From: a virus
Length of the DNA: 41,232 bases
IMG/VR virus record: IMGVR_UViG_3300009702_000006
Coordinates: 1-41,232 of that record
Direction: 5' to 3' (one strand)
In this document: positions 14,541 through 41,232 of the stretch, in pieces
Layout of the letters: the number at the start of each line of letters is the position of its first letter
How positions within the stretch are numbered: the stretch's first letter is position 1
The notes under the pieces: model-generated
The model's database searches: none
The model's input: the letters and a program-made list of their open reading frames with translations, nothing else
Told to the model about the DNA's origin: nothing
Translations under genes and position numbers: made by a program

Positions 14541-14614
14541 TACCCCCGATGGGGATCGAACCCATACTTTAGGGATTTTAAGTCCCTTACCTCTGCCAAT
14601 TGGGTTACGGGGGC
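14541..14614 (-). tRNA. tRNA with anticodon UAA (Leu by anticodon) but a class-I, short-variable-loop shape
   Basis: Sense sequence: GCCCCCG TA ACCC AATTGGCAG AGGT A AGGGA CTTAAAA TCCCT AAAGT ATGGG TTCGATC CCCAT CGGGGGT A. It has a 7-bp acceptor stem (G1-U72), a GG-containing D-loop, a canonical TTCGATC T-loop, U33, A73 and no encoded CCA. Confidence 0.85.
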
Positions 14615-15334
14615 TTATACGTGGCGTTTCCACCCTTCTTTATATCTATCGTGTGCTTGCGTTAAATATAAATGGTGAATGTCAAAGCCAAGAGTTCGCC
14701 GCCCTTGCCGTTTAGCTGCAATATACATACTGCCTGAGCCAGTAAATAAATCTAAAACAATATCATTAGGACGACTAAATGCACGGACAAAGGTAGTACA
14801 TAATTCGATAGGCTGACAGCTTCTACCCTTAGCATGACGTAAATAATCACGCTCTCTACTGTTTCCAGGTACTCGCGGATATTGTAAAACAGTAGGTGGG
14901 GTACGCCCTCGGTGATCAGCCCGTAAATCTTTACTTAGCATTCGTTGGGAGGGGATAGCAACTGACTGCCAGTTAAAGAAGGGCGTACCCCGTTTATATA
15001 CTAGAATTGTTTGATGAGATTCTACAAATTTCTTTTTTGTGTATGTTCCGAAATTGTAGAACCAAATAAGATCCTGAACGAAAGATATATACGAACGATA
15101 CTTTCGCATACATGTTTCGATATCATATCTTATTTTAGATTGTGTATTTATTAACAGATAACTATCATCAGCCATACACCGTGTCGCATGATAGATCCAA
15201 TCCTGCGTAAACTTCCTATACGATGTAAGTATCTCGGTTGAATCATAGGCATCTGTAAACGGCGGATCAGCATAAACTAATTGAGCACAATTAGCCTTTA
15301 CCGGTAACGTCCTTGTATCCGCTGTAATTAGCAC
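14615..15334 (-). CDS. DNA N6-adenine/N4-cytosine methyltransferase (beta class)
   Basis: 239 aa. LVYADPPF (motif IV) precedes VLDLFTGSGS (motif I). GTG start. The stop codon abuts tRNA base 1. Confidence 0.8.
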   Translation of the reverse strand: MLITADTRTLPVKANCAQLVYADPPFTDAYDSTEILTSYRKFTQDWIYHATRCMADDSYLLINTQSKIRYDIETCMRKYRSYISFVQDLIWFYNFGTYTKKKFVESHQTILVYKRGTPFFNWQSVAIPSQRMLSKDLRADHRGRTPPTVLQYPRVPGNSRERDYLRHAKGRSCQPIELCTTFVRAFSRPNDIVLDLFTGSGSMYIAAKRQGRRTLGFDIHHLYLTQAHDRYKEGWKRHV

Positions 15335-15342
15335 TACACTAT

Positions 15343-16068
15343 CTATCTATCAGTTTCTGTATCTGAACTTTCTGCTTCTTCTACTTCCGCTTCCGCTTTA
15401 ATCGGTGCAATAAACATTGCCATTGCATCATTATAAGCACTAGCAGCAGGGAAATACTCTGCTAATGGTTCAATCGGAAGAACTCTAGGTACCCATGCTT
15501 TACGCCCATTTTTATAATCTACCATATCTGCATACAATTCAAAGCAATTTGTATATGGTAAATCTTTAGTATTTTCTGGGCGATTGTCAATCTCTACCAT
15601 ATGATCAAAGATATCGAACGATATATATCGTGCCGTCTTTGATCCTGGAAAAAATACAGCAAAGACAAATGTGTTGGGGATATATACTAGAAACTCCCCG
15701 GCTGCCCACTGAGCAAAGGTACCCGAAGGGTGTTTAATCTTTGCTAATGTTACAATCTCTTTAAAGACAGGAGAATCTTCATTGAAAGATTCCATTGTCT
15801 TTTGACCATTCTCTACAAACATAGCATGGGGTCTAAAGCCCATAATACAAATGACAACTTTCCTTTTTAGGTTTTTATCCTGTACTGTCAGGAAATAATC
15901 CCCAGGGGCGTTGCCTTCAGTATTACATTCTTCAGAAACTCCCTGCAATAACTTAAGAGCAGGCAGAAAGTTAGCTGCTGTAGATTCTTTACGATATTGT
16001 TTTGCTAGTGAGGGTGAAGGAACTAAACCAGTTCCGATATTGGCAATTGTTATTTGTTTTTCGTCCAT
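15343..16068 (-). CDS. Hypothetical protein with an acidic C-terminal tail (possible gp2.5-type ssDNA-binding protein)
   Basis: Start trimmed to MDEKQITI (SD aaaggaaataacaATG). C-terminus EAEVEEAESSDTETDR. It lies inside the replication module. The SSB call is inference only. Confidence 0.5.
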   Translation of the reverse strand: MDEKQITIANIGTGLVPSPSLAKQYRKESTAANFLPALKLLQGVSEECNTEGNAPGDYFLTVQDKNLKRKVVICIMGFRPHAMFVENGQKTMESFNEDSPVFKEIVTLAKIKHPSGTFAQWAAGEFLVYIPNTFVFAVFFPGSKTARYISFDIFDHMVEIDNRPENTKDLPYTNCFELYADMVDYKNGRKAWVPRVLPIEPLAEYFPAASAYNDAMAMFIAPIKAEAEVEEAESSDTETDR

Positions 16069-16164
16069 TGTTATTTCCTTTTCTTTTTTAATTAGAGATA
16101 GTGGGGGCACCCTAAGGGTTACTTGGGTGCCCCACACTATCGTGCTAGGCTTGCCTAGCTGCTG

Positions 16165-17154
16165 TTAAGCGAGGCTCTCGGCTGCGGATTCTGTTTTTTG
16201 TCTCTTTAATTCTGCTTCTAAACGCTCTACTTCTTCCTTTTGCTTTTGCAATTTCTTCATTGCGGATTCAAGAGAACGCTGTTCCTTCTTTGCTTCTCTA
16301 GCGAGTTCCTTTTGCTTCAGGGTTTCGGGGTCACACGATAGCATCTTTTCTGCCATCTGCTTTTCACCAGTAAGAATTAAATAATCCTCAGTTTCAGGAT
16401 CAGTATTCTTTAATGTATTGGTGACATGATCCAGCATTGCTTCTGCTTCTCGCAGACCAACAAACTTTTTAGTTACAACAAAGTCAACTTTACTTTTGCC
16501 CTCACGTAATGCCTTATTAAAAGCTTTACGCTGCTGGGTAATATAACTAATCGCTGCATCAGCTGGCATACCCTCTTTTTCAACTTCATTCGCAACCTGT
16601 TCTTGATATTGAATAGGGACACGAGCTAGGGTTAAGCCTACACTCGGTGTAATTTGTCCTTTATCAAGTTTAGCCTGCAATGATTTTGTTAATTTCCCAT
16701 AGCCCATAATCTTGGAGATATCTGTTGGTGTCTTTCCAAAATCTTCCGCAATCTCGCTTTGAGTTTTGGTGGGGTGGGCCAACATATATCGTTTAAAATG
16801 TTCATACTGTTCCCTCGGTTTAGTAGGAACATTTGTATTTAACATATATTGAGATTGTTGAGCTTCTTCCGGTGTCAATCGTTCCTTGACAGTACAAGGA
16901 ATCTCTTTCAAACCTAATTCTTTCGCAATCATTGTGCGGTGTAAACCATCACACAAAATAAACTCATCAGGGATAATTTCATCAGTCTCAGGATTCCGTG
17001 CAGGGGTAACAAATACTGGACGATTAGGATGAAACCCTTTTGATTTTATTAATCTTTTAATGTGTAAAGTGTGAGGGTCATCCGGGTGATATTCCCGAAT
17101 ATTATTTAATTCACTGGCATTAATCTTTTTCGGATCAATCATTACAATTTGCAT
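16165..17154 (-). CDS. ParB/Srx-domain protein with HTH and a Lys/Glu-rich coiled-coil tail
   Basis: 329 aa. ILCDGLHRTMIAKELG (DGxHR ParB N-terminal motif) and an HTH-like KTQSEIAEDFGKTPTDISKIMGYG. Confidence 0.7.
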   Translation of the reverse strand: MQIVMIDPKKINASELNNIREYHPDDPHTLHIKRLIKSKGFHPNRPVFVTPARNPETDEIIPDEFILCDGLHRTMIAKELGLKEIPCTVKERLTPEEAQQSQYMLNTNVPTKPREQYEHFKRYMLAHPTKTQSEIAEDFGKTPTDISKIMGYGKLTKSLQAKLDKGQITPSVGLTLARVPIQYQEQVANEVEKEGMPADAAISYITQQRKAFNKALREGKSKVDFVVTKKFVGLREAEAMLDHVTNTLKNTDPETEDYLILTGEKQMAEKMLSCDPETLKQKELAREAKKEQRSLESAMKKLQKQKEEVERLEAELKRQKTESAAESLA

Positions 17155-17892: not shown

Positions 17893-18375
17893 CTAGAAAA
17901 TAGCTCCAGACAAATTGGCTCCATACAAATTGGCTCCAGACAAATTAGCTTCAGACAGATTAGCTATAATTAAACTGGCTTCAGTTAAGTCTGCTCTAGA
18001 TAAATCTGCCTTAGTCAAATTGGCCCCAGACAAATTGGCTTGATATAAGTTAGTTGAAATTAGAATGGCCCCAAATAAATAGGTTCCACATAAATCTACT
18101 CTAGATAAATCTGCTCTGAATAAATCTGCTTCGGATAAATCTACTCTAAATAAATCTGCTCCGGATAAATCAGCTCCTGACAAATTGGCTCCGGATAAAT
18201 TAGCTAAATATAAGTCAGTTGAAATTAGAATGGCTCCGGACAAATTGGCTCCGGACAAATTGGCTAGATATAAATTGGCTCCTGACAAATCAGCTCCTGA
18301 CAAATTGGCTCCGGACAAATCTGCTCCGGATAAATTGTAATATCGAAGATCGAGATTGTGAAGGTCGAGTGCCAT
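17893..18375 (-). CDS. Pentapeptide-repeat protein (160 aa)
   Basis: Almost the whole protein is A(D/N)LSG-type pentapeptides (ADLSGANLSGADLSG...). GGAG-containing SD upstream (gaaggagaaaccaATG). Confidence 0.85.
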   Translation of the reverse strand: MALDLHNLDLRYYNLSGADLSGANLSGADLSGANLYLANLSGANLSGAILISTDLYLANLSGANLSGADLSGADLFRVDLSEADLFRADLSRVDLCGTYLFGAILISTNLYQANLSGANLTKADLSRADLTEASLIIANLSEANLSGANLYGANLSGAIF

Positions 18376-18387
18376 TGGTTTCTCCTT

Positions 18388-18720
18388 CTAGAAAATGGTA
18401 TCGTCAAAATCTTCGTCTGTTAAATAGGCTCCGGTTAAATCAGCTCCAGATAAATTAGTTCCAGTTAAATTGGCTCCAGACAAATAGGCTCCAGATAAAT
18501 TAGCTTCAGTTAAATCTGCTAAGTATAAATCAGTTGAGATTAGAATAGCTTCAGGTAAATCAGCTCCAGTTAAATCAGCTCCAGTTAAATCAGCTTCAGA
18601 TAAATCAGTTCTAAATAAATTGGCTCCAGACAAATCGGTTCCGGATAAATTGGCTCCCGACAAATCTGCTCCAGACAAATTGTAATGTCGAAGATCGAGA
18701 TTGTGAAGGTCGAGTGCCAT
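18388..18720 (-). CDS. Pentapeptide-repeat protein (110 aa), tandem paralog of 17893-18375
   Basis: Same MALDLHNLDLR-YNLSGADLSGANLSG N-terminus. The 5' end plus SD region is 68/72 nt identical to the neighbour (18316-18387 vs 18661-18732). Confidence 0.85.
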   Translation of the reverse strand: MALDLHNLDLRHYNLSGADLSGANLSGTDLSGANLFRTDLSEADLTGADLTGADLPEAILISTDLYLADLTEANLSGAYLSGANLTGTNLSGADLTGAYLTDEDFDDTIF

Positions 18721-18733
18721 TTGTTTCTCCTTT

Positions 18734-18964
18734 TTATTTTACCAAAGAGTTCAATTCTTTCTTGATCCTTCTTGCAGTTTCACCCCTATAGGATTGTGCG
18801 TTGGCAAGGAAATAAATAATAATTCCTTTTGCATCGTCCAACCCATAATGGTCATCGACACTATGCAGGGACGCCATGGCGTCTAGATAGGGTTTGGCAC
18901 CAAAATAAACATTCTTCCAATCGTTGCGAATTTCCTGTGCGATTTTGTAGATAGGTCGAGTCAT
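18734..18964 (-). CDS. Hypothetical 76-aa protein, paralog A of 20410-20640
   Basis: Start trimmed to MTRPIYKIAQEIR (SD aaaaggagacctagaATG). 43/76 residues identical to paralog B by hand alignment. Confidence 0.6.
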   Translation of the reverse strand: MTRPIYKIAQEIRNDWKNVYFGAKPYLDAMASLHSVDDHYGLDDAKGIIIYFLANAQSYRGETARRIKKELNSLVK

Positions 18965-18996
18965 TCTAGGTCTCCTTTTTGGATGGTTCATGGAAC

Positions 18997-19442: not shown

Positions 19443-19466
19443 CGTATATCTTGCGAACGGCATAGG
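19443..19466. repeat. Left arm of a perfect 24-bp inverted repeat
   Basis: cgtatatcttgcgaacggcatagg is the exact reverse complement of 20014-20037. Confidence 0.95.
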
Positions 19467-19482: not shown

Positions 19483-19980
19483 TTAGTTTTCGACAGGTTC
19501 GTCGACAGGTTCGTCGACAGGTTCGTTGACAGGTTCGTGGTTGAGGGTGCCCAAAAGGTAGACACGGGCTTGTTCCCTCAATTCCTTGTTGGGTTCCTTG
19601 CATGCCAGTTTGAAAGCTTTACGAACCGCTTTCACGTTTGGGGTCATGCCGAGAAGGTGCTTTGTTGCCCATGGGATGTTTTTCCCAGTGATGCTATAGT
19701 CAATTTCACAATCGTTGGGGACAGTGAATCGACTCAGCTTGCTGTCTAGCAAGTTTCGGGCGGCATCTTCGAGGTCTGACGCGGCAGTGTACAACCAGTC
19801 CGCGAACCCGTTGGGATTGTTGGATCCCTTTGTGTAGATGGACAACGCTTTGTCAAGGGCAGGACCAATTGGACATTCACTATTGTGATTGTCCAAACTG
19901 GCGATTAGGTCGCCTAGTGCGACCATAGCTTCGGCTTGTGTTGCCGTTCCGGTGTTTAGATTCTTTGCGAGATTGAACAT
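19483..19980 (-). CDS. Hypothetical 165-aa protein with a C-terminal (EPVD/N)4 acidic repeat
   Basis: ATG start with aaaggaaataggtgaccctATG upstream. It ends HEPVNEPVDEPVDEPVEN. The inverted repeat brackets it exactly. Confidence 0.6.
   Translation of the reverse strand: MFNLAKNLNTGTATQAEAMVALGDLIASLDNHNSECPIGPALDKALSIYTKGSNNPNGFADWLYTAASDLEDAARNLLDSKLSRFTVPNDCEIDYSITGKNIPWATKHLLGMTPNVKAVRKAFKLACKEPNKELREQARVYLLGTLNHEPVNEPVDEPVDEPVEN
19491..19538. repeat. 12-bp tandem repeat, 4 copies (cgacaggttcgt)
   Basis: Three perfect copies and one with a single mismatch. In frame, encoding the EPVD repeats. Confidence 0.9.
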
Positions 19981-20013: not shown

Positions 20014-20037
20014 CCTATGCCGTTCGCAAGATATACG
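20014..20037. repeat. Right arm of the perfect 24-bp inverted repeat
   Basis: cctatgccgttcgcaagatatacg is the reverse complement of 19443-19466. Confidence 0.95.
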
Positions 20038-20387
20038 CGAGAAATTGTAGGGCTATGTAGGCATATCGGTAACTTGTGCTATGATGCGTTTTTTCGGCCT
20101 TTGCAGACCTAAGTCTATCGCACCATAGCGGCAGTTTCGCCCGTAACGTATGTACTACCCATACGCTACTGTGCAGTTGGCCAGACCGTACGTTTATACC
20201 GTACTCGGTTCGCCCGTAGGCTCGCGACTCGGGGGTAGAGAGTATCTGCACACTCTCTATTACTACCGCTACAATCCGGTAGCATGGCCTTATACCGATA
20301 TTCAGTTGTTAACGACTTCGTGGGCGTCTACCACCTAGGCAGACCCGCCGGCGACCGCGAGGATAAACTCGCCGTCGCCGGCGTTTT
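20038..20387 (+). ncRNA. Candidate structured plus-strand RNA, antisense to the early arm (hypothesis)
   Basis: About 370 nt with no SD-preceded ORF on either strand and high GC. Hairpins at 20078-20129, 20147-20165, 20236-20259 and 20263-20282. A possible extended -10 (TGcTATGAT, 20077-20085). It ends in tandem + strand terminators. Confidence 0.3.
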
Positions 20388-20407
20388 CCACGGCGTCGCC
20401 GTGGTTT
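20347..20407 (+). terminator. Tandem GC-rich hairpins each followed by a T-run on the + strand
   Basis: GCCGGCGAC-c-GCGAG-gataaa-CTCGC-c-GTCGCCGGC then gTTTT. This is followed by CCACGGC-gtc-GCCGTGG then TTT. On the minus strand neither hairpin is followed by a T-run. Confidence 0.55.
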
Positions 20408-20409
20408 CG

Positions 20410-20640
20410 TCATCCGAGCATCCCCTTCAACTCGGCCTTGATGCGGCGAGCGTCAGGACCTCTCCAAGTTTGAGCGTTGGACAGGAAGTAGAGTACGATA
20501 CTCCGTGCATCGTCAAGCCCGTACTTGTCCTTGACCGAGGACACACACCCCATAGCCGATAGGTAGGGTTTGGCGAAGGGACTAACGCGTCCCCACTTCT
20601 CGCGGACTTCATCCGCTATCACGTACAAGGGTCTAGTCAT
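20410..20640 (-). CDS. Hypothetical 76-aa protein, paralog B of 18734-18964 (high GC)
   Basis: Start trimmed to MTRPLYVIADEVR (SD ggagagttgcaATG). Same length as paralog A and collinear with it. Confidence 0.6.
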   Translation of the reverse strand: MTRPLYVIADEVREKWGRVSPFAKPYLSAMGCVSSVKDKYGLDDARSIVLYFLSNAQTWRGPDARRIKAELKGMLG

Positions 20641-20784
20641 TGCAACTCTCCAAAAAAACCACAATATCCGGTAGGCCTATTGCAAGTTGCGTGCCAGACA
20701 GTTATACTGTAGTTATTATCTTTATACTTTATATTTCCTGTAGTAGTGAACAATATCCGTTCATACTGTAAATCAGGGGGCGGC

Positions 20785-20896
20785 TGTCTGCCAAAATGGC
20801 AGACACATTATCGGACCCTGCCATAATGACAGTAAAACGTCATTTATAGGCTCTAATCGACGCTTTGTGACATTGTGAAATCGGCCATAATGACAG
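20785..20896. promoter_or_regulatory. Three copies of the TGCCAWAATGRCAG-like motif; the first is a perfect 8-bp-arm palindrome
   Basis: tgtctgcc aaaat ggcagaca at 20785-20805. tgccataatgacag at 20819-20832. ggccataatgacag at 20883-20896, the last inside hairpin tcggcc-n9-ggccga. Confidence 0.5.
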
Positions 20897-21048
20897 GCCG
20901 ATACGGTTTAAGTAGTACTTGATTCTTTTTCAGTAATAGTGTATACTTATAAAGTAATACTGAAACCGTGGCCGAATTGTCGAGAAGTCTATCCAGATAC
21001 CCTATCTTCACAATTTTGCGCCAAATACCTAGTTTCACAGGGTCGAAA

Positions 21049-21226
21049 TAAATTATAACTTTAATCCAGTATCGCTTTAATAAAGTATTACTTTAACCGG
21101 CTGCCGCCCCGCGACCTACAGTATCACTTTAATAAAGTGATACTTTAATAAAGTATAACTTTAAGCGGCGGGGCATAAAGTGATACTTGAATACGGAATC
21201 GCGACTCGCGTTAAAGTGGCACTTTA
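21049..21226. promoter_or_regulatory. Phased array of eight TAAAGT-N3-ACTTTA palindromes (operator, iteron, centromere or pac-type sites)
   Basis: Perfect copies at 21081, 21133, 21149 and 21212. One-mismatch copies at 21049, 21117 and 21176. A degenerate copy at 21065. They form two blocks of three units on an exact 16-bp register, each unit separated by a single A, plus two single units. GC-rich spacers carry CGCGAC three times (21110, 21200, 21230). Confidence 0.7.
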
Positions 21227-21364
21227 AGCCGCGACACTTGTTGCGTTTTCTTCCTTCTCCTCCTCAGTGTCGTTCGGTGGGCAATGGGGTAGGGTGTTCG
21301 ATAGGATTCCGAAAGGTGCTGAAGTATATATACCAGTATATCGACGTTGAGTCGTTAAAATATT

Positions 21365-21721
21365 ATGTCAACTTTACGTGATAACGAAATAGTAACAGCG
21401 AATAGTTTTGATACCGAAGCTGATTTTAATATGGTGAATCACCTATTAAAAAAGCCGAGATATAAAATACCAGAGCATCTTCGTGATAAAATAATAACTA
21501 GAGCTGGTCGTATTATTGAACAAACAGAAGATGACAAAACAGCACTAGCAGCAGCGAATACAGTTATTGCAATGGATAAATTAAATATACAATTAGTACA
21601 AATTGCAATGCCAAAGAAAGTTGAACGGAGAGATATAGAAAAAATGCCACAGGAAGAATTATTAGAAGCTCTGAGGGAAGTTAGAAAAAAACTACCGGAG
21701 GTATTACCTTATGAGGCGTGA
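21365..21721 (+). CDS. Putative small terminase subunit (by position)
   Basis: 118 aa. It is the first gene of the plus arm, two genes upstream of TerL. No motif recognised. Confidence 0.35.
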   Translation: MSTLRDNEIVTANSFDTEADFNMVNHLLKKPRYKIPEHLRDKIITRAGRIIEQTEDDKTALAAANTVIAMDKLNIQLVQIAMPKKVERRDIEKMPQEELLEALREVRKKLPEVLPYEA

Positions 21722-39084: not shown

Positions 39085-40482
39085 ATGACAGTATTAGATT
39101 CTAAAATTGCTGATGTTCTATCCCAGATAGATAATACAGCATCTAATTTAGACATACCTAAACCTGGATTTTTAGACAAAGCATTCCCACTTGTAGCTCA
39201 AGCATTAATAAATAATAGCAATGCTAAGTTACAAGCCAGTGGCCTACCTGCACAAAAATTTGATTTATCACAATTACAGAGTGCGGCTGGCAGTAGAAGC
39301 AGTGTTAATAATGCAATTAATACTGAATTGGCAATACGACAATTGCGTTTGAAAGCTAATCAAGCAAAGTTAGCTGGGTTATTAAATATAATTCGTACAC
39401 AACAATCTGGTAAAGAAAGTAATGCTCGGATTGGACAATCTAATACTGCTAGTGCTGCAAATATAGCGAGAACCCAATCCATACTTAATGCAGATGAACG
39501 AGCTAATGCTCTTTTTCCAAATCAGCAACGAAAACTAAAAACTGAAATTCAAGCTGAACATGATAAAAATGCACGAGCTAATGCTCTTTTTCCAAATCAG
39601 CAACGAAAACTAAAAACTGAAATTCAAGCTGAACATGATAAAAATGCACGAGCTAATATTCTTTTCTCAGATCAACAACGAACTGCAGCAGCTAAAAGAA
39701 AGAGTGCTGAAGCCCAAGCTGAACGTGATGCAGCTGTAAATAAAATAGCACAGTCACTATTCGAGGCTGGAAATATTGAACCAGCTATTAATCTTCTTGC
39801 TGGTCGTAATGTTAAACAAAATAAAAAAGAAACAACAGATGATGTTTTATTCCGCGATAATGCACGGGCACGAGCACTTGGTGAAGCATTTGATAAGGGA
39901 CAAGTAAAACCTGGAACACCAGAATTTGAAGAATTGACTGCTTTAAGAGCAGAAGCTCAAAATGGACATCCCCTTACCAAAGATATTAATTTAAAAACTA
40001 TATCTTTTATCAGTTCTTTAAAACGAGCAAACGCTAATCCTGATGGAACTTTATCGACAAAACAACTAATTCAATTGAAAGATTTTGTTCGTAGAAATTA
40101 TGGTCCAATATTTGAGGCGATAAAAGATAGAACAGTATCCGATAATAGCGGTAAAAAAGTGTCAGGTAAAACTTTAATAGAGAATGAAAGTTTAGTATTT
40201 CTTGCACAAAAATTAGGAACAGATGTAAACTCATTGGAAAATGATTTACTTGTATCTACGGCAGTTCAGAAAAAACGAAATAATGATGTACAAAAAGCTC
40301 TTGCATCTGGTAATTTTAGACAAGCTAGTATACTTGCTTCAAAGACTGTAGAAGAACTTATCCAGGATAAACTGTTAAAAGAACGAAAAAAACGAACCGA
40401 GAATCGAGCTCGTAAACAACGAAGAAATGAACGTAAACAAACTCAAAGTGTCTTTGGATCATTTGGAAGGGCTAGACCATAA
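39085..40482 (+). CDS. Coiled-coil internal virion protein candidate (gp15-like position) containing a perfect 25-aa duplication
   Basis: 465 aa. ANALFPNQQRKLKTEIQAEHDKNAR occurs twice in tandem. Confidence 0.45.
   Translation: MTVLDSKIADVLSQIDNTASNLDIPKPGFLDKAFPLVAQALINNSNAKLQASGLPAQKFDLSQLQSAAGSRSSVNNAINTELAIRQLRLKANQAKLAGLLNIIRTQQSGKESNARIGQSNTASAANIARTQSILNADERANALFPNQQRKLKTEIQAEHDKNARANALFPNQQRKLKTEIQAEHDKNARANILFSDQQRTAAAKRKSAEAQAERDAAVNKIAQSLFEAGNIEPAINLLAGRNVKQNKKETTDDVLFRDNARARALGEAFDKGQVKPGTPEFEELTALRAEAQNGHPLTKDINLKTISFISSLKRANANPDGTLSTKQLIQLKDFVRRNYGPIFEAIKDRTVSDNSGKKVSGKTLIENESLVFLAQKLGTDVNSLENDLLVSTAVQKKRNNDVQKALASGNFRQASILASKTVEELIQDKLLKERKKRTENRARKQRRNERKQTQSVFGSFGRARP
39502..39651. 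repeat. Perfect 75-bp tandem duplication (2 copies) plus a degenerate third start
   Basis: 39502-39576 is identical to 39577-39651. In frame. Confidence 0.9.
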
Positions 40483-41232
40483 TGGGACTACAAGAATCAT
40501 TTAGTTCCGGCGGGGCAACAACATCCTTAAAAAATGTTAAACCTATTAAAGAGAACACTACTTTTGGTACACTAACTGATTTAGGTTTTGAATTATTGGA
40601 TGCATCTGCTAACTTCACTAGATCTCTAGCTGCTGGTGATCCAATTAATGCTCTTAAAGTATTAACTCCTGGCATAGAATCCAGAAATGTTGATATTACA
40701 GAAACCCCTCTCGCTAGTGAAGGGTCTCCTGTAATACAACAAATAGGAGCAACAGTTTTACTTGATCCATTAACTTTTGCAACTGGACTTTTACCATTAA
40801 CTAAATATGGTAAGGCTGTGGAAGAAGTTGCAACTGCCAGTCGATTATTGAAAGTAACAAAAGGATTAGAAGAGGGTGTTGATGTTGCTGAAAAAATAGC
40901 GGCAGCGACAAAAAGATTAGATGAAGCTGAAGCAGCTTTAAAGGCTGTTAGTAATGGGAAAAATGTAAAGCGAGCGTTAATTTCTCTTGGTAGTCCTATA
41001 GGTAAAACTGGTAGTGGTTTACAACTAGGTAATGCAGATCGTGTTGCACAAACATTATCAGCATTAAAACTATTTCCTGATGTACGTATTCCTTCTGTTG
41101 TTGAACAACGTATAAAATTAGCAAGTAAGCGTTCAAAATTAATTAATAAAGGTGAAGCTAATGCCAAAGATATTTCAACTTATTATCATGGCTCACCCTT
41201 CCCGTTTGAACGCTTTGATATAACAAAATCTA
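40482..41232 (+). CDS. N-terminal part of the wrap-around 1228-aa giant virion protein (continues at base 124 of the window, ends at 3059)
   Basis: The ATG overlaps the upstream stop (TAATG). I translated it by hand to the window end without a stop (MGLQESFSSGGATTSLKNVK...). It is in phase with frame 3..3059 through the 123-bp overlap. Confidence 0.85.
   Translation, partial: MGLQESFSSGGATTSLKNVKPIKENTTFGTLTDLGFELLDASANFTRSLAAGDPINALKVLTPGIESRNVDITETPLASEGSPVIQQIGATVLLDPLTFATGLLPLTKYGKAVEEVATASRLLKVTKGLEEGVDVAEKIAAATKRLDEAEAALKAVSNGKNVKRALISLGSPIGKTGSGLQLGNADRVAQTLSALKLFPDVRIPSVVEQRIKLASKRSKLINKGEANAKDISTYYHGSPFPFERFDITKS
41110..41232. repeat. Terminal overlap copy 2, identical to 1-123
   Basis: Base-by-base identity with the window start. 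Confidence 0.95.

Follow-up and report, generated by a model that had tools for sequence, protein, structure and literature searches.

The window analysed here is the whole 41,232-nucleotide stretch of the IMG/VR virus record IMGVR_UViG_3300009702_000006, and the element in question is an array of eight 15 bp palindromes at positions 21049 to 21226. The window is a circular assembly, with an exact 123 bp terminal overlap (1-123 / 41110-41232), and the genome is approximately 41.1 kb with 35% GC. Given this overlap, the ends of the contig are arbitrary. Its leftward arm contains the replication and early genes, encoding a DUF5906 primase-helicase of 870 aa, PolA, an SNF2 helicase, nucleases, MazG, a methylase, and a ParB-like protein. 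The rightward arm contains the structural genes, including those for TerL and a P22-type portal. Between the two is a non-coding junction (20665-21364). Here, AT-rich DNA is followed by three palindromes of a second family, called B, a predicted rightward promoter (P_R) bracketed by degenerate units of the array palindrome, the eight-unit array itself, a terminator-like hairpin, a single-copy element, and the late open reading frame (ORF) that starts at 21365.

The units of the array were scored by their mismatches to TAAAGTNNNACTTTA (TAAAGT-N3-ACTTTA) and are called A units. Perfect copies are found as unit 3 (21081-21095, TAAAGTattACTTTA), unit 5 (21133-21147, TAAAGTgatACTTTA), unit 6 (21149-21163, TAAAGTataACTTTA), and unit 8 (21212-21226, TAAAGTggcACTTTA), the last being present as an identical 15-mer in L068, a relative of this phage. 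There is one mismatch in unit 1 (21049-21063, TAAATTataACTTTA), unit 4 (21117-21131, TACAGTatcACTTTA), and unit 7 (21176-21190, TAAAGTgatACTTGA). The initial annotation, made from the sequence alone, had counted eight palindromes. The sites are present as it described them, except that unit 2 (21065-21079, TCCAGTatcGCTTTA) is degenerate, with 3 mismatches. The 41,232-base window contains 7 units with 1 or no mismatch, all of them within the 178 bp of the array. Dinucleotide-preserving shuffles of the whole window gave 0.35 +/- 0.67 such units, and none of 100 shuffles reached 7. The palindrome cluster is real and non-random.

The array is organized as two blocks of three units followed by two single units. 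An exact 16 bp register had been claimed for both blocks and was borne out, with Tandem Repeats Finder (TRF) reporting period-16 arrays at 21047-21096 and 21120-21164. The two blocks form a 58 nt direct repeat (21044-21101 / 21112-21169) with 78% identity. The second is inside an inverted repeat with 33 nt arms and GC-rich ends (21106-21138 / 21142-21174), unit 5 being at the centre of this repeat (21106-21174). The high copy number in the window stems at least partly from a duplicated 68 bp segment. The unit spacings of 16, 27, and 36 bp are equal to 1.5, 2.6, and 3.4 helical turns. When the two degenerate units at 20908 and 20950 are included with the eight of the array, the centres of all ten A units are on two opposite helical faces, with turn fractions near 0.0 or 0.5. 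Other details from the initial annotation were also confirmed. CGCGAC is present three times in the array region (21110, 21200, and 21230), accounting for 3 of its 6 genome copies. The distance from the end of the array to the ATG of the first late gene (21365), given before as about 140 bp, is 139 bp. A TATAAT hexamer is indeed on the minus strand at 21052-21057, where the plus strand reads ATTATA. As a leftward promoter this hexamer was rejected, the promoter scan having given no matching -35. A literature search for the A motif returned incidental primer and operator strings only, and a scan of viral contigs for a double A unit returned only two unrelated AT-rich intergenic matches.

The sequences on either side of the array contain several candidate control signals. 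P_R, predicted as a rightward sigma70-type promoter on the plus strand at 20919-20947 (TTGATT-N17-TATACT), is a consensus match only. One degenerate A unit (20908-20922, TTAAGTagtACTTGA) overlaps its -35 and the other (20950-20964, TAAAGTaatACTGAA) covers its predicted transcription start, while the eight-unit array itself is downstream. Directly after the array, on the plus strand at 21230-21255, is a terminator-like hairpin, CGCGACacttGTTGCG and then a T-rich run, which is likewise a consensus match only and was not seen in the relative L164. The single-copy element follows at 21303-21334, at the start of the late operon, also on the plus strand, and reads aGGAtTCC-N12-aGTATATATACC. On the early side, the B palindromes (CTGYCA-WAA-TGRCAG) are at 20788-20802, 20818-20832, and 20882-20896, the first two overlapping leftward promoter-like sites. 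One such site (20807-20836, minus strand, TTTACT-N18-GATAAT) has its -10 inside a conserved TTATCGGAC motif, of which the window has one copy (20808-20816). The array had been described as being between the divergent arms of the genome. It is in the early/late junction, but on the late side of it, downstream of P_R rather than between divergent promoters.

No DNA similarity to deposited phages was found for the array region or for the 12 kb surrounding it, and TerL is at most 24% identical to that of any deposited phage. There are many metagenomic relatives, designated here by L numbers, with TerL identities of 35-64%. A search of 185,579 species genomes found no prophage relatives. Its sole matches were a 40 kb contig binned with an Acidobacteriota metagenome-assembled genome and a distant 24% match, and this search yielded neither a host nor an indication of lysogeny. 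Integrase, repressor, and ParA families had no match among the ORFs scanned, and no CI/Cro-like or S24 protein was found. Because CI/Cro-like, integrase, and S24 proteins were not found, the phage looks virulent.

The order of the junction recurs in the relatives, where early genes are followed by B units, a TTGACA-N17-TATACT-type rightward promoter, A units, GGGACTCC-N12-GGTATATATACC, and the late operon. Counterparts of P_R are present in L007 (TTGACA-N17-TATACT), L009, L059, and L158, and in L158 and L164 the equivalent promoter has A-like units overlapping its -35 region. Conservation of the array in relatives had been put forward as a check on the initial annotation, and the motif is kept at the same position, in the slot from P_R to the late-operon element, in L009/L010, L014/L164 (five units), L059, and L068. 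The TerL proteins of the relatives that share this slot are 42-63% identical to that of the window over the matched segments. A spacing of 36-37 bp is common to the window, L164, and L009. Since the A motif is found again in the corresponding position of distant relatives from metagenomes, for which TerL identity is approximately 50-64%, these comparisons indicate that it is functional. The B palindromes, with the same 6-N3-6 layout, are kept in many relatives, including some without the A motif. Other repeats are found in the slot elsewhere in the clade: GTAGCTGT-like repeats in L007, 37 nt repeats in L001, two tandem arrays of GGAGCC-type hexamers in L089 (890-950 and 1130-1195, with approximately 9-10 copies each), and 5-8 copies of TTATCGGAC, in both orientations, in L025 (8050-8360) and L030 (6970-7535).

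The anatomy of the motif was assessed from 60 units at 9 loci. The consensus is TRAAGT-N3-ACTTYA, in which the 3 bp centre is free, and the flanks stretch the symmetry to approximately 21 bp (RAT-TRAAGT-N3-ACTTYA-ATY). The half-sites vary independently, with G..C occurring together at position 2 only 2 times, against approximately 2.6 by chance. An A..C mismatch is present at position 2 in 8 of the 60 units, without compensatory changes. With conserved half-sites, a free centre, and no covariation between the halves, the A units fit a dimeric protein on duplex DNA better than they fit RNA hairpins. The earlier idea that the array is a binding platform for a dimeric protein is thus supported in general, by the anatomy of the sites, by the absence of pair covariation, and by the positional conservation in relatives.

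The best candidate for this protein is p165, a 165-aa early protein encoded on the minus strand at 19483-19980. With p165 alone as the query, a word-based homologue search returned no other protein. Six proteins were retrieved from a word-indexed database with a profile, and 15 representatives from 1.84 billion when the search was exhaustive. In the first set of loci, clear homologues are present in L059, L009, and L010 only. In every contig that was fetched for its p165 homologue, the gene is closely preceded by A units (L158/L159, L160, L161, L162, L163, L164-L166, and L167). Clear homologues are present in 10 fetched relative contigs (L009, L010, L059, L158, L160, L161, L162, L163, L164, and L167), and in 10 out of 10 of these a unit with 2 or fewer mismatches is 43-209 nt upstream of the p165 start codon. 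The density of A units is 0.30 per kb in the p165-positive loci, compared with 0.06 per kb in 1.44 Mb without a clear homologue. In the genomes with p165 the A units form two clusters, the first at p165 itself and the second in the interval from the rightward promoter to the late operon. The exception is the window, in which the p165 cluster is missing or very weak and the junction cluster is expanded. From this co-occurrence, p165 is the most likely binder of the A motif. Weak, syntenic p165-like ORFs are found in several relatives that have other motifs at the junction, and L025 and L030, which have the TTATCGGAC arrays, contain distant p165-like ORFs only. This would fit a possible co-evolving binding specificity. 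A 16-mer conserved near p165 in relatives was also scanned, giving seven chance matches, none of them with p165 or clusters of the motif.

A structure was predicted for p165 from a 16-sequence alignment, the prediction from 6 sequences being unusable, with a predicted local distance difference test score (pLDDT) of 47. The 16-sequence model is all-alpha, with a pLDDT of 85.8. In this model, helices 102-112 and 116-127 are consecutive with a 3-residue turn between them. Residues A105, L110, G111, R120, and K124 are invariant in the six closest members of the family, and there is a weak profile hint to the helix-turn-helix region of ArsR/CadC (E 0.14). The modelled pair of helices resembles a helix-turn-helix, and it is a resemblance only.

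Several other features are found at the p165 gene. A perfect 24 bp inverted repeat (19443-19466 / 20014-20037) encloses the p165 ORF and its ribosome-binding region. The homologues are likewise enclosed, by repeats of unrelated sequence, in L009 (26 nt, 96%), L164 (30 nt, 100%), L158 (27 nt, 100%), and L059 (25 nt, 100%). These repeats are candidates for a covarying long-range stem, perhaps for mRNA excision of the RNase III type, or for the ends of an invertible cassette. The repetitive (EPV[ND])n tail at the C-terminus of p165 is encoded, on the minus strand, by a 12 nt tandem repeat of 4.1 copies (TCGACAGGTTCG, 19490-19538). Between p165 and an 84-aa gene is an apparently non-coding stretch of approximately 370 nt (20040-20409) that is GC-rich, at approximately 49% compared with 35% for the genome. 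Short GTTCRCCCGTAGG-like motifs are common to its counterparts in relatives, in which compensatory pairs are also seen. The stretch has no Rfam match and is a possible structured leader or non-coding RNA.

Four roles for the array had been offered in the initial annotation, and the operators of an early/late switch fit best, because the degenerate units overlap the -35 and start of the predicted P_R and because the B family overlaps leftward promoter-like sites. On the available comparisons, it is suggested that the array is an operator cluster for a phage regulator that controls late transcription, a reading to which a probability of about one half can be given. A single sequence-specific regulator encoded by the phage, probably p165 made from the leftward early operon, would bind each A site in duplex DNA as a dimer. 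The dimers would occupy the two units that bracket P_R as well as the eight downstream units, and occupancy of the A sites would occlude P_R. With spacings of 16, 27, and 36 bp, successive dimers would be placed on opposite helical faces, so that the bound array may form a zig-zag nucleoprotein stretch of approximately 180 bp. This stretch could either repress and block transcription towards the late genes or serve as a set of upstream sites for the late-operon element. The effect could be repression or activation. The A units preceding the p165 gene in relatives suggest that p165 may regulate its own expression, and a second regulator may act through the B palindromes at the leftward promoter-like sites.

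It is possible to take this further, although only as a tentative proposal that is more doubtful than not. On this proposal p165 would be the founder of a new fold of regulators that bind nucleic acids sequence-specifically. Its dimers, covering the array on alternating helical faces, would be a switchable barrier or enhancer of the late operon, and its own mRNA would be excised by the covarying stem of 24-30 bp around the ORF. The whole would then be a new early/late switch module in a widespread clade of uncultured phages from groundwater and sediment.

A number of observations weigh against the array being an operator cluster bound by p165. Relative to P_R, the eight units are at approximately +100 to +280 on the downstream side, not a classical position for an operator. 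The promoters and the terminator are matches to a consensus only, and this consensus may not be that of the host. The A unit nearest to p165 in the window is 935 nt from its start. L068 and, more weakly, L093/L094 have A-like units with no clear p165 homologue in the available sequence. It could be that p165 and the motif co-occur because they descend together as one module, and not because one binds the other. The p165 model has no significant match in PDB or BFVD, to a DNA-binding protein or otherwise. Near p165 in the relatives, one A unit has been replaced by an unrelated GC-rich palindrome, a change that would also suit a requirement for a hairpin.

This last point bears on whether the units act instead in RNA. 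In that case transcription from P_R through the array would yield a small RNA or leader of approximately 300 nt ending at 21230-21255. The UAAAGU-NNN-ACUUUA hairpins in it would be nut-like or would be a decoy that draws off an RNA-binding protein (p165 being one possibility), with equivalents in the leader of the p165 mRNA. The order of promoter, array, and terminator-like hairpin is as such an element would have it, although the hairpin is not seen in L164. Palindromes also yield the same stems in leftward and rightward transcripts. As a single strand, the array region folds with a z of -4.0 as RNA and -5.5 as DNA, but strong single-strand folding would be expected of any palindrome array. 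Near p165 in relatives, the leader has compensatory pairs as well as the A unit swapped for a GC-rich hairpin, so that RNA may contribute in this leader, and the covarying perfect inverted repeats that enclose the p165 ORF suggest RNA processing. Within the A units themselves the pattern is different: the stem sequence is conserved and the loop is free, the opposite of typical protein-binding hairpins in RNA, and the 60 units show no covariation of the half-sites, with A..C and U..C mismatches left uncompensated. Single 6 bp AU-rich stems with triloops would, by our own estimate, be marginally stable only. The array has no Rfam match, the search at gathering and permissive thresholds having returned only the tRNA and one chance microRNA match. 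An RNA-level element is judged to be quite unlikely.

The main alternative to the operator cluster is a replication origin, and this is considered unlikely as well, if slightly less so. The palindromes would bind an initiator, either p165 or the 870-aa DUF5906 primase-helicase, beside a promoter that activates the origin by transcription, with the GC-rich segments acting as clamps that bound the melted region. The array is at the strand switch and at the turning region of the cumulative GC skew, but the skew is confounded by gene orientation. It has many repeats in grouped blocks, and a strong predicted promoter reads into it. Its units, however, are full palindromes on a 16 bp register of 1.5 turns, not direct repeats in helical phase (approximately 21-22 bp), and no DnaA box (TTATCCACA, with 1 or no mismatch) is present between 13394 and 22369. 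The AT-rich DNA at 20700-20750, which might count as an unwinding element, is not specific. The z of -5.5 makes the single-strand fold of the array unusually stable, as an origin might be. The presence of different repeat families in the same slot of the relatives is what co-evolving pairs of origin and initiator would give. Against this, the units are placed as is typical of operators, flanking the -35 and start of a predicted promoter and preceding the p165 gene, and the motif is kept across relatives in which no similarity can be detected among the remaining early genes near the junction.

The position of the array just before the late operon also raises the question of packaging, in which the palindromes would be pac or cosB-like sites for a small terminase encoded immediately after them. 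A distance of 139 bp separates the array from the first late gene, which comes before TerL, and the cosB of lambda is also just upstream of Nu1. The L008 contig begins 105 nt before the first gene of the late operon, and that of L001 ends in a repeat array. The circular assembly of the window is uninformative on termini. The contig ends of relatives were rejected as evidence of termini, being scattered 1.5-9 kb upstream of TerL in a hypervariable early region, and they are more likely to be assembly breaks. The first late protein, of 118 aa, had been named as the TerS candidate, but it has no terminase, family, or structure match in Pfam, PHROGs, or PDB. The protein, including its N-terminus, is kept in relatives with and without the A motif, some of which have quite different repeats. 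The same is true, with respect to the A motif, of the 74-aa protein that follows it. The proposed role of the array in TerS recognition is not supported by these results. In addition, A units cluster at the p165 gene of relatives, far from the terminase genes. The element at 21303-21334 is kept throughout the clade as GGGACTCC-N12-GGTATATATACC, and in 12 or more distinct relatives it closely precedes the first gene of the late operon. It may serve as a late promoter or as a cos/pac signal, and for either of these it is a better candidate than the array. Packaging through the A units is therefore very improbable.

A parS-like centromere for the ParB-like protein (16165-17154) had been suggested too, and the protein would then load at the array or spread from it. 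Centromeres and KorB operators typically have palindromes in clusters, and the protein does have a match to HTH_ParB (E 8e-7) and to the 'ParB-like partition protein' families of PHROGs. The canonical N-terminal motif of ParB is of the GERRxRA type, and in its place this protein has DGLHR. No ParA family was matched in the ORFs scanned. With no integrase or repressor family and no prophage relatives, maintenance as a plasmid or prophage is not indicated. Homologues of the ParB-like protein are present in L007/L012 and L025, none of which have A units, and the A motif is unlike the parS consensus. Furthermore, the ParB-like gene is in a module (14615-17154), conserved in relatives, with a 264-aa protein without a family match and an N6/N4 DNA methylase, and this module looks more like DNA modification than partition. 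The parS-like role is accordingly not supported and, of the functions considered, is the one least to be expected.

Some further features of the genome were recorded. The early arm includes a tRNA-Leu gene (anticodon TAA) on the minus strand at 14541-14614, and two neighbouring pentapeptide-repeat proteins (17893-18375 and 18388-18720; Pfam PF00805, E 1e-57 and 3e-45) that have no homologues in the fetched relatives. Two paralogues of 84-85 aa (phrog_13953) are encoded at 18734-18991 and 20410-20664, one of which is the first gene of the leftward operon and adjoins the junction. In the late arm, the ORF at 39085-40482 contains a 75 nt tandem repeat (39494-39682) of 2.5 copies with 93% matches.

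To our knowledge, nothing is known of gene control in this clade of uncultured phages of approximately 41-46 kb, for which the TerL comparison with deposited phages (at most 24% identity) identifies no cultured relative. The array, the B family, and the late-operon element together provide a concrete and testable map of the early/late control region of the clade. The orphan p165, with its confident but unmatched predicted fold, is linked to the motif, which leads to the specific and testable hypothesis of a new DNA-binding family. If the array were instead an origin or a packaging signal, it would anchor models of replication and of the genome ends for these phages.

The junction can be compared with several known systems. 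Like the iteron origins of RK2 oriV and lambda ori, the junction has grouped repeats (3+3+1+1), GC-rich and AT-rich segments, and a candidate binder gene that is preceded by related inverted repeats. Unlike these origins, its palindromes are out of helical phase, it has no DnaA boxes, and the placement of its units is tied to promoters. In the late control of lambda, the promoter PR' is followed by the 6S RNA, the terminator tR', and the late genes, and Q is loaded at the promoter. The window similarly has a predicted, constitutive-looking sigma70 promoter overlapped by putative protein sites, a leader of approximately 300 nt, a terminator-like hairpin, and a late operon. However, no Q-like fold was detected for p165, the palindromes in the leader have no counterpart in lambda, and the hairpin is not seen in L164.

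The switch of phi29 is based on sites for p4 and a nucleoprotein complex of p6 between the promoters A2c/A2b and A3. In phi29, as may be the case here, a virulent phage has divergent early and late promoters, and an early protein bound to several intergenic inverted repeats switches transcription. The sequence and spacing of the sites differ between the two, the proteins are non-homologous, and the array described here is wholly on the late side.

Clusters of operators are also found at the switches of other phages, at OR and OL of lambda, at pR of 186 with its flanking sites, and at OR, OL, and OD of TP901-1. These have in common with the window repeated, dyad-symmetric sites of 14-21 bp at and near divergent promoters (predicted ones in the window), with adjacent copies that would allow cooperative binding, and a (here putative) regulator gene that borders the control region and is itself preceded by sites. 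The window has eight to ten sites, rather than three, and the 15 bp palindromes are head to tail with 1 bp gaps on a 1.5-turn register. Most of the sites are 100-280 bp downstream of the predicted promoter, the genome looks virulent, and in place of a CI/Cro-like, integrase, or S24 protein, none of which was found, there is a candidate binder without a recognisable fold. With these differences, the operator clusters of lambda, 186, and TP901-1 and the p4/p6 switch of phi29 appear to be the closest analogues of the array.

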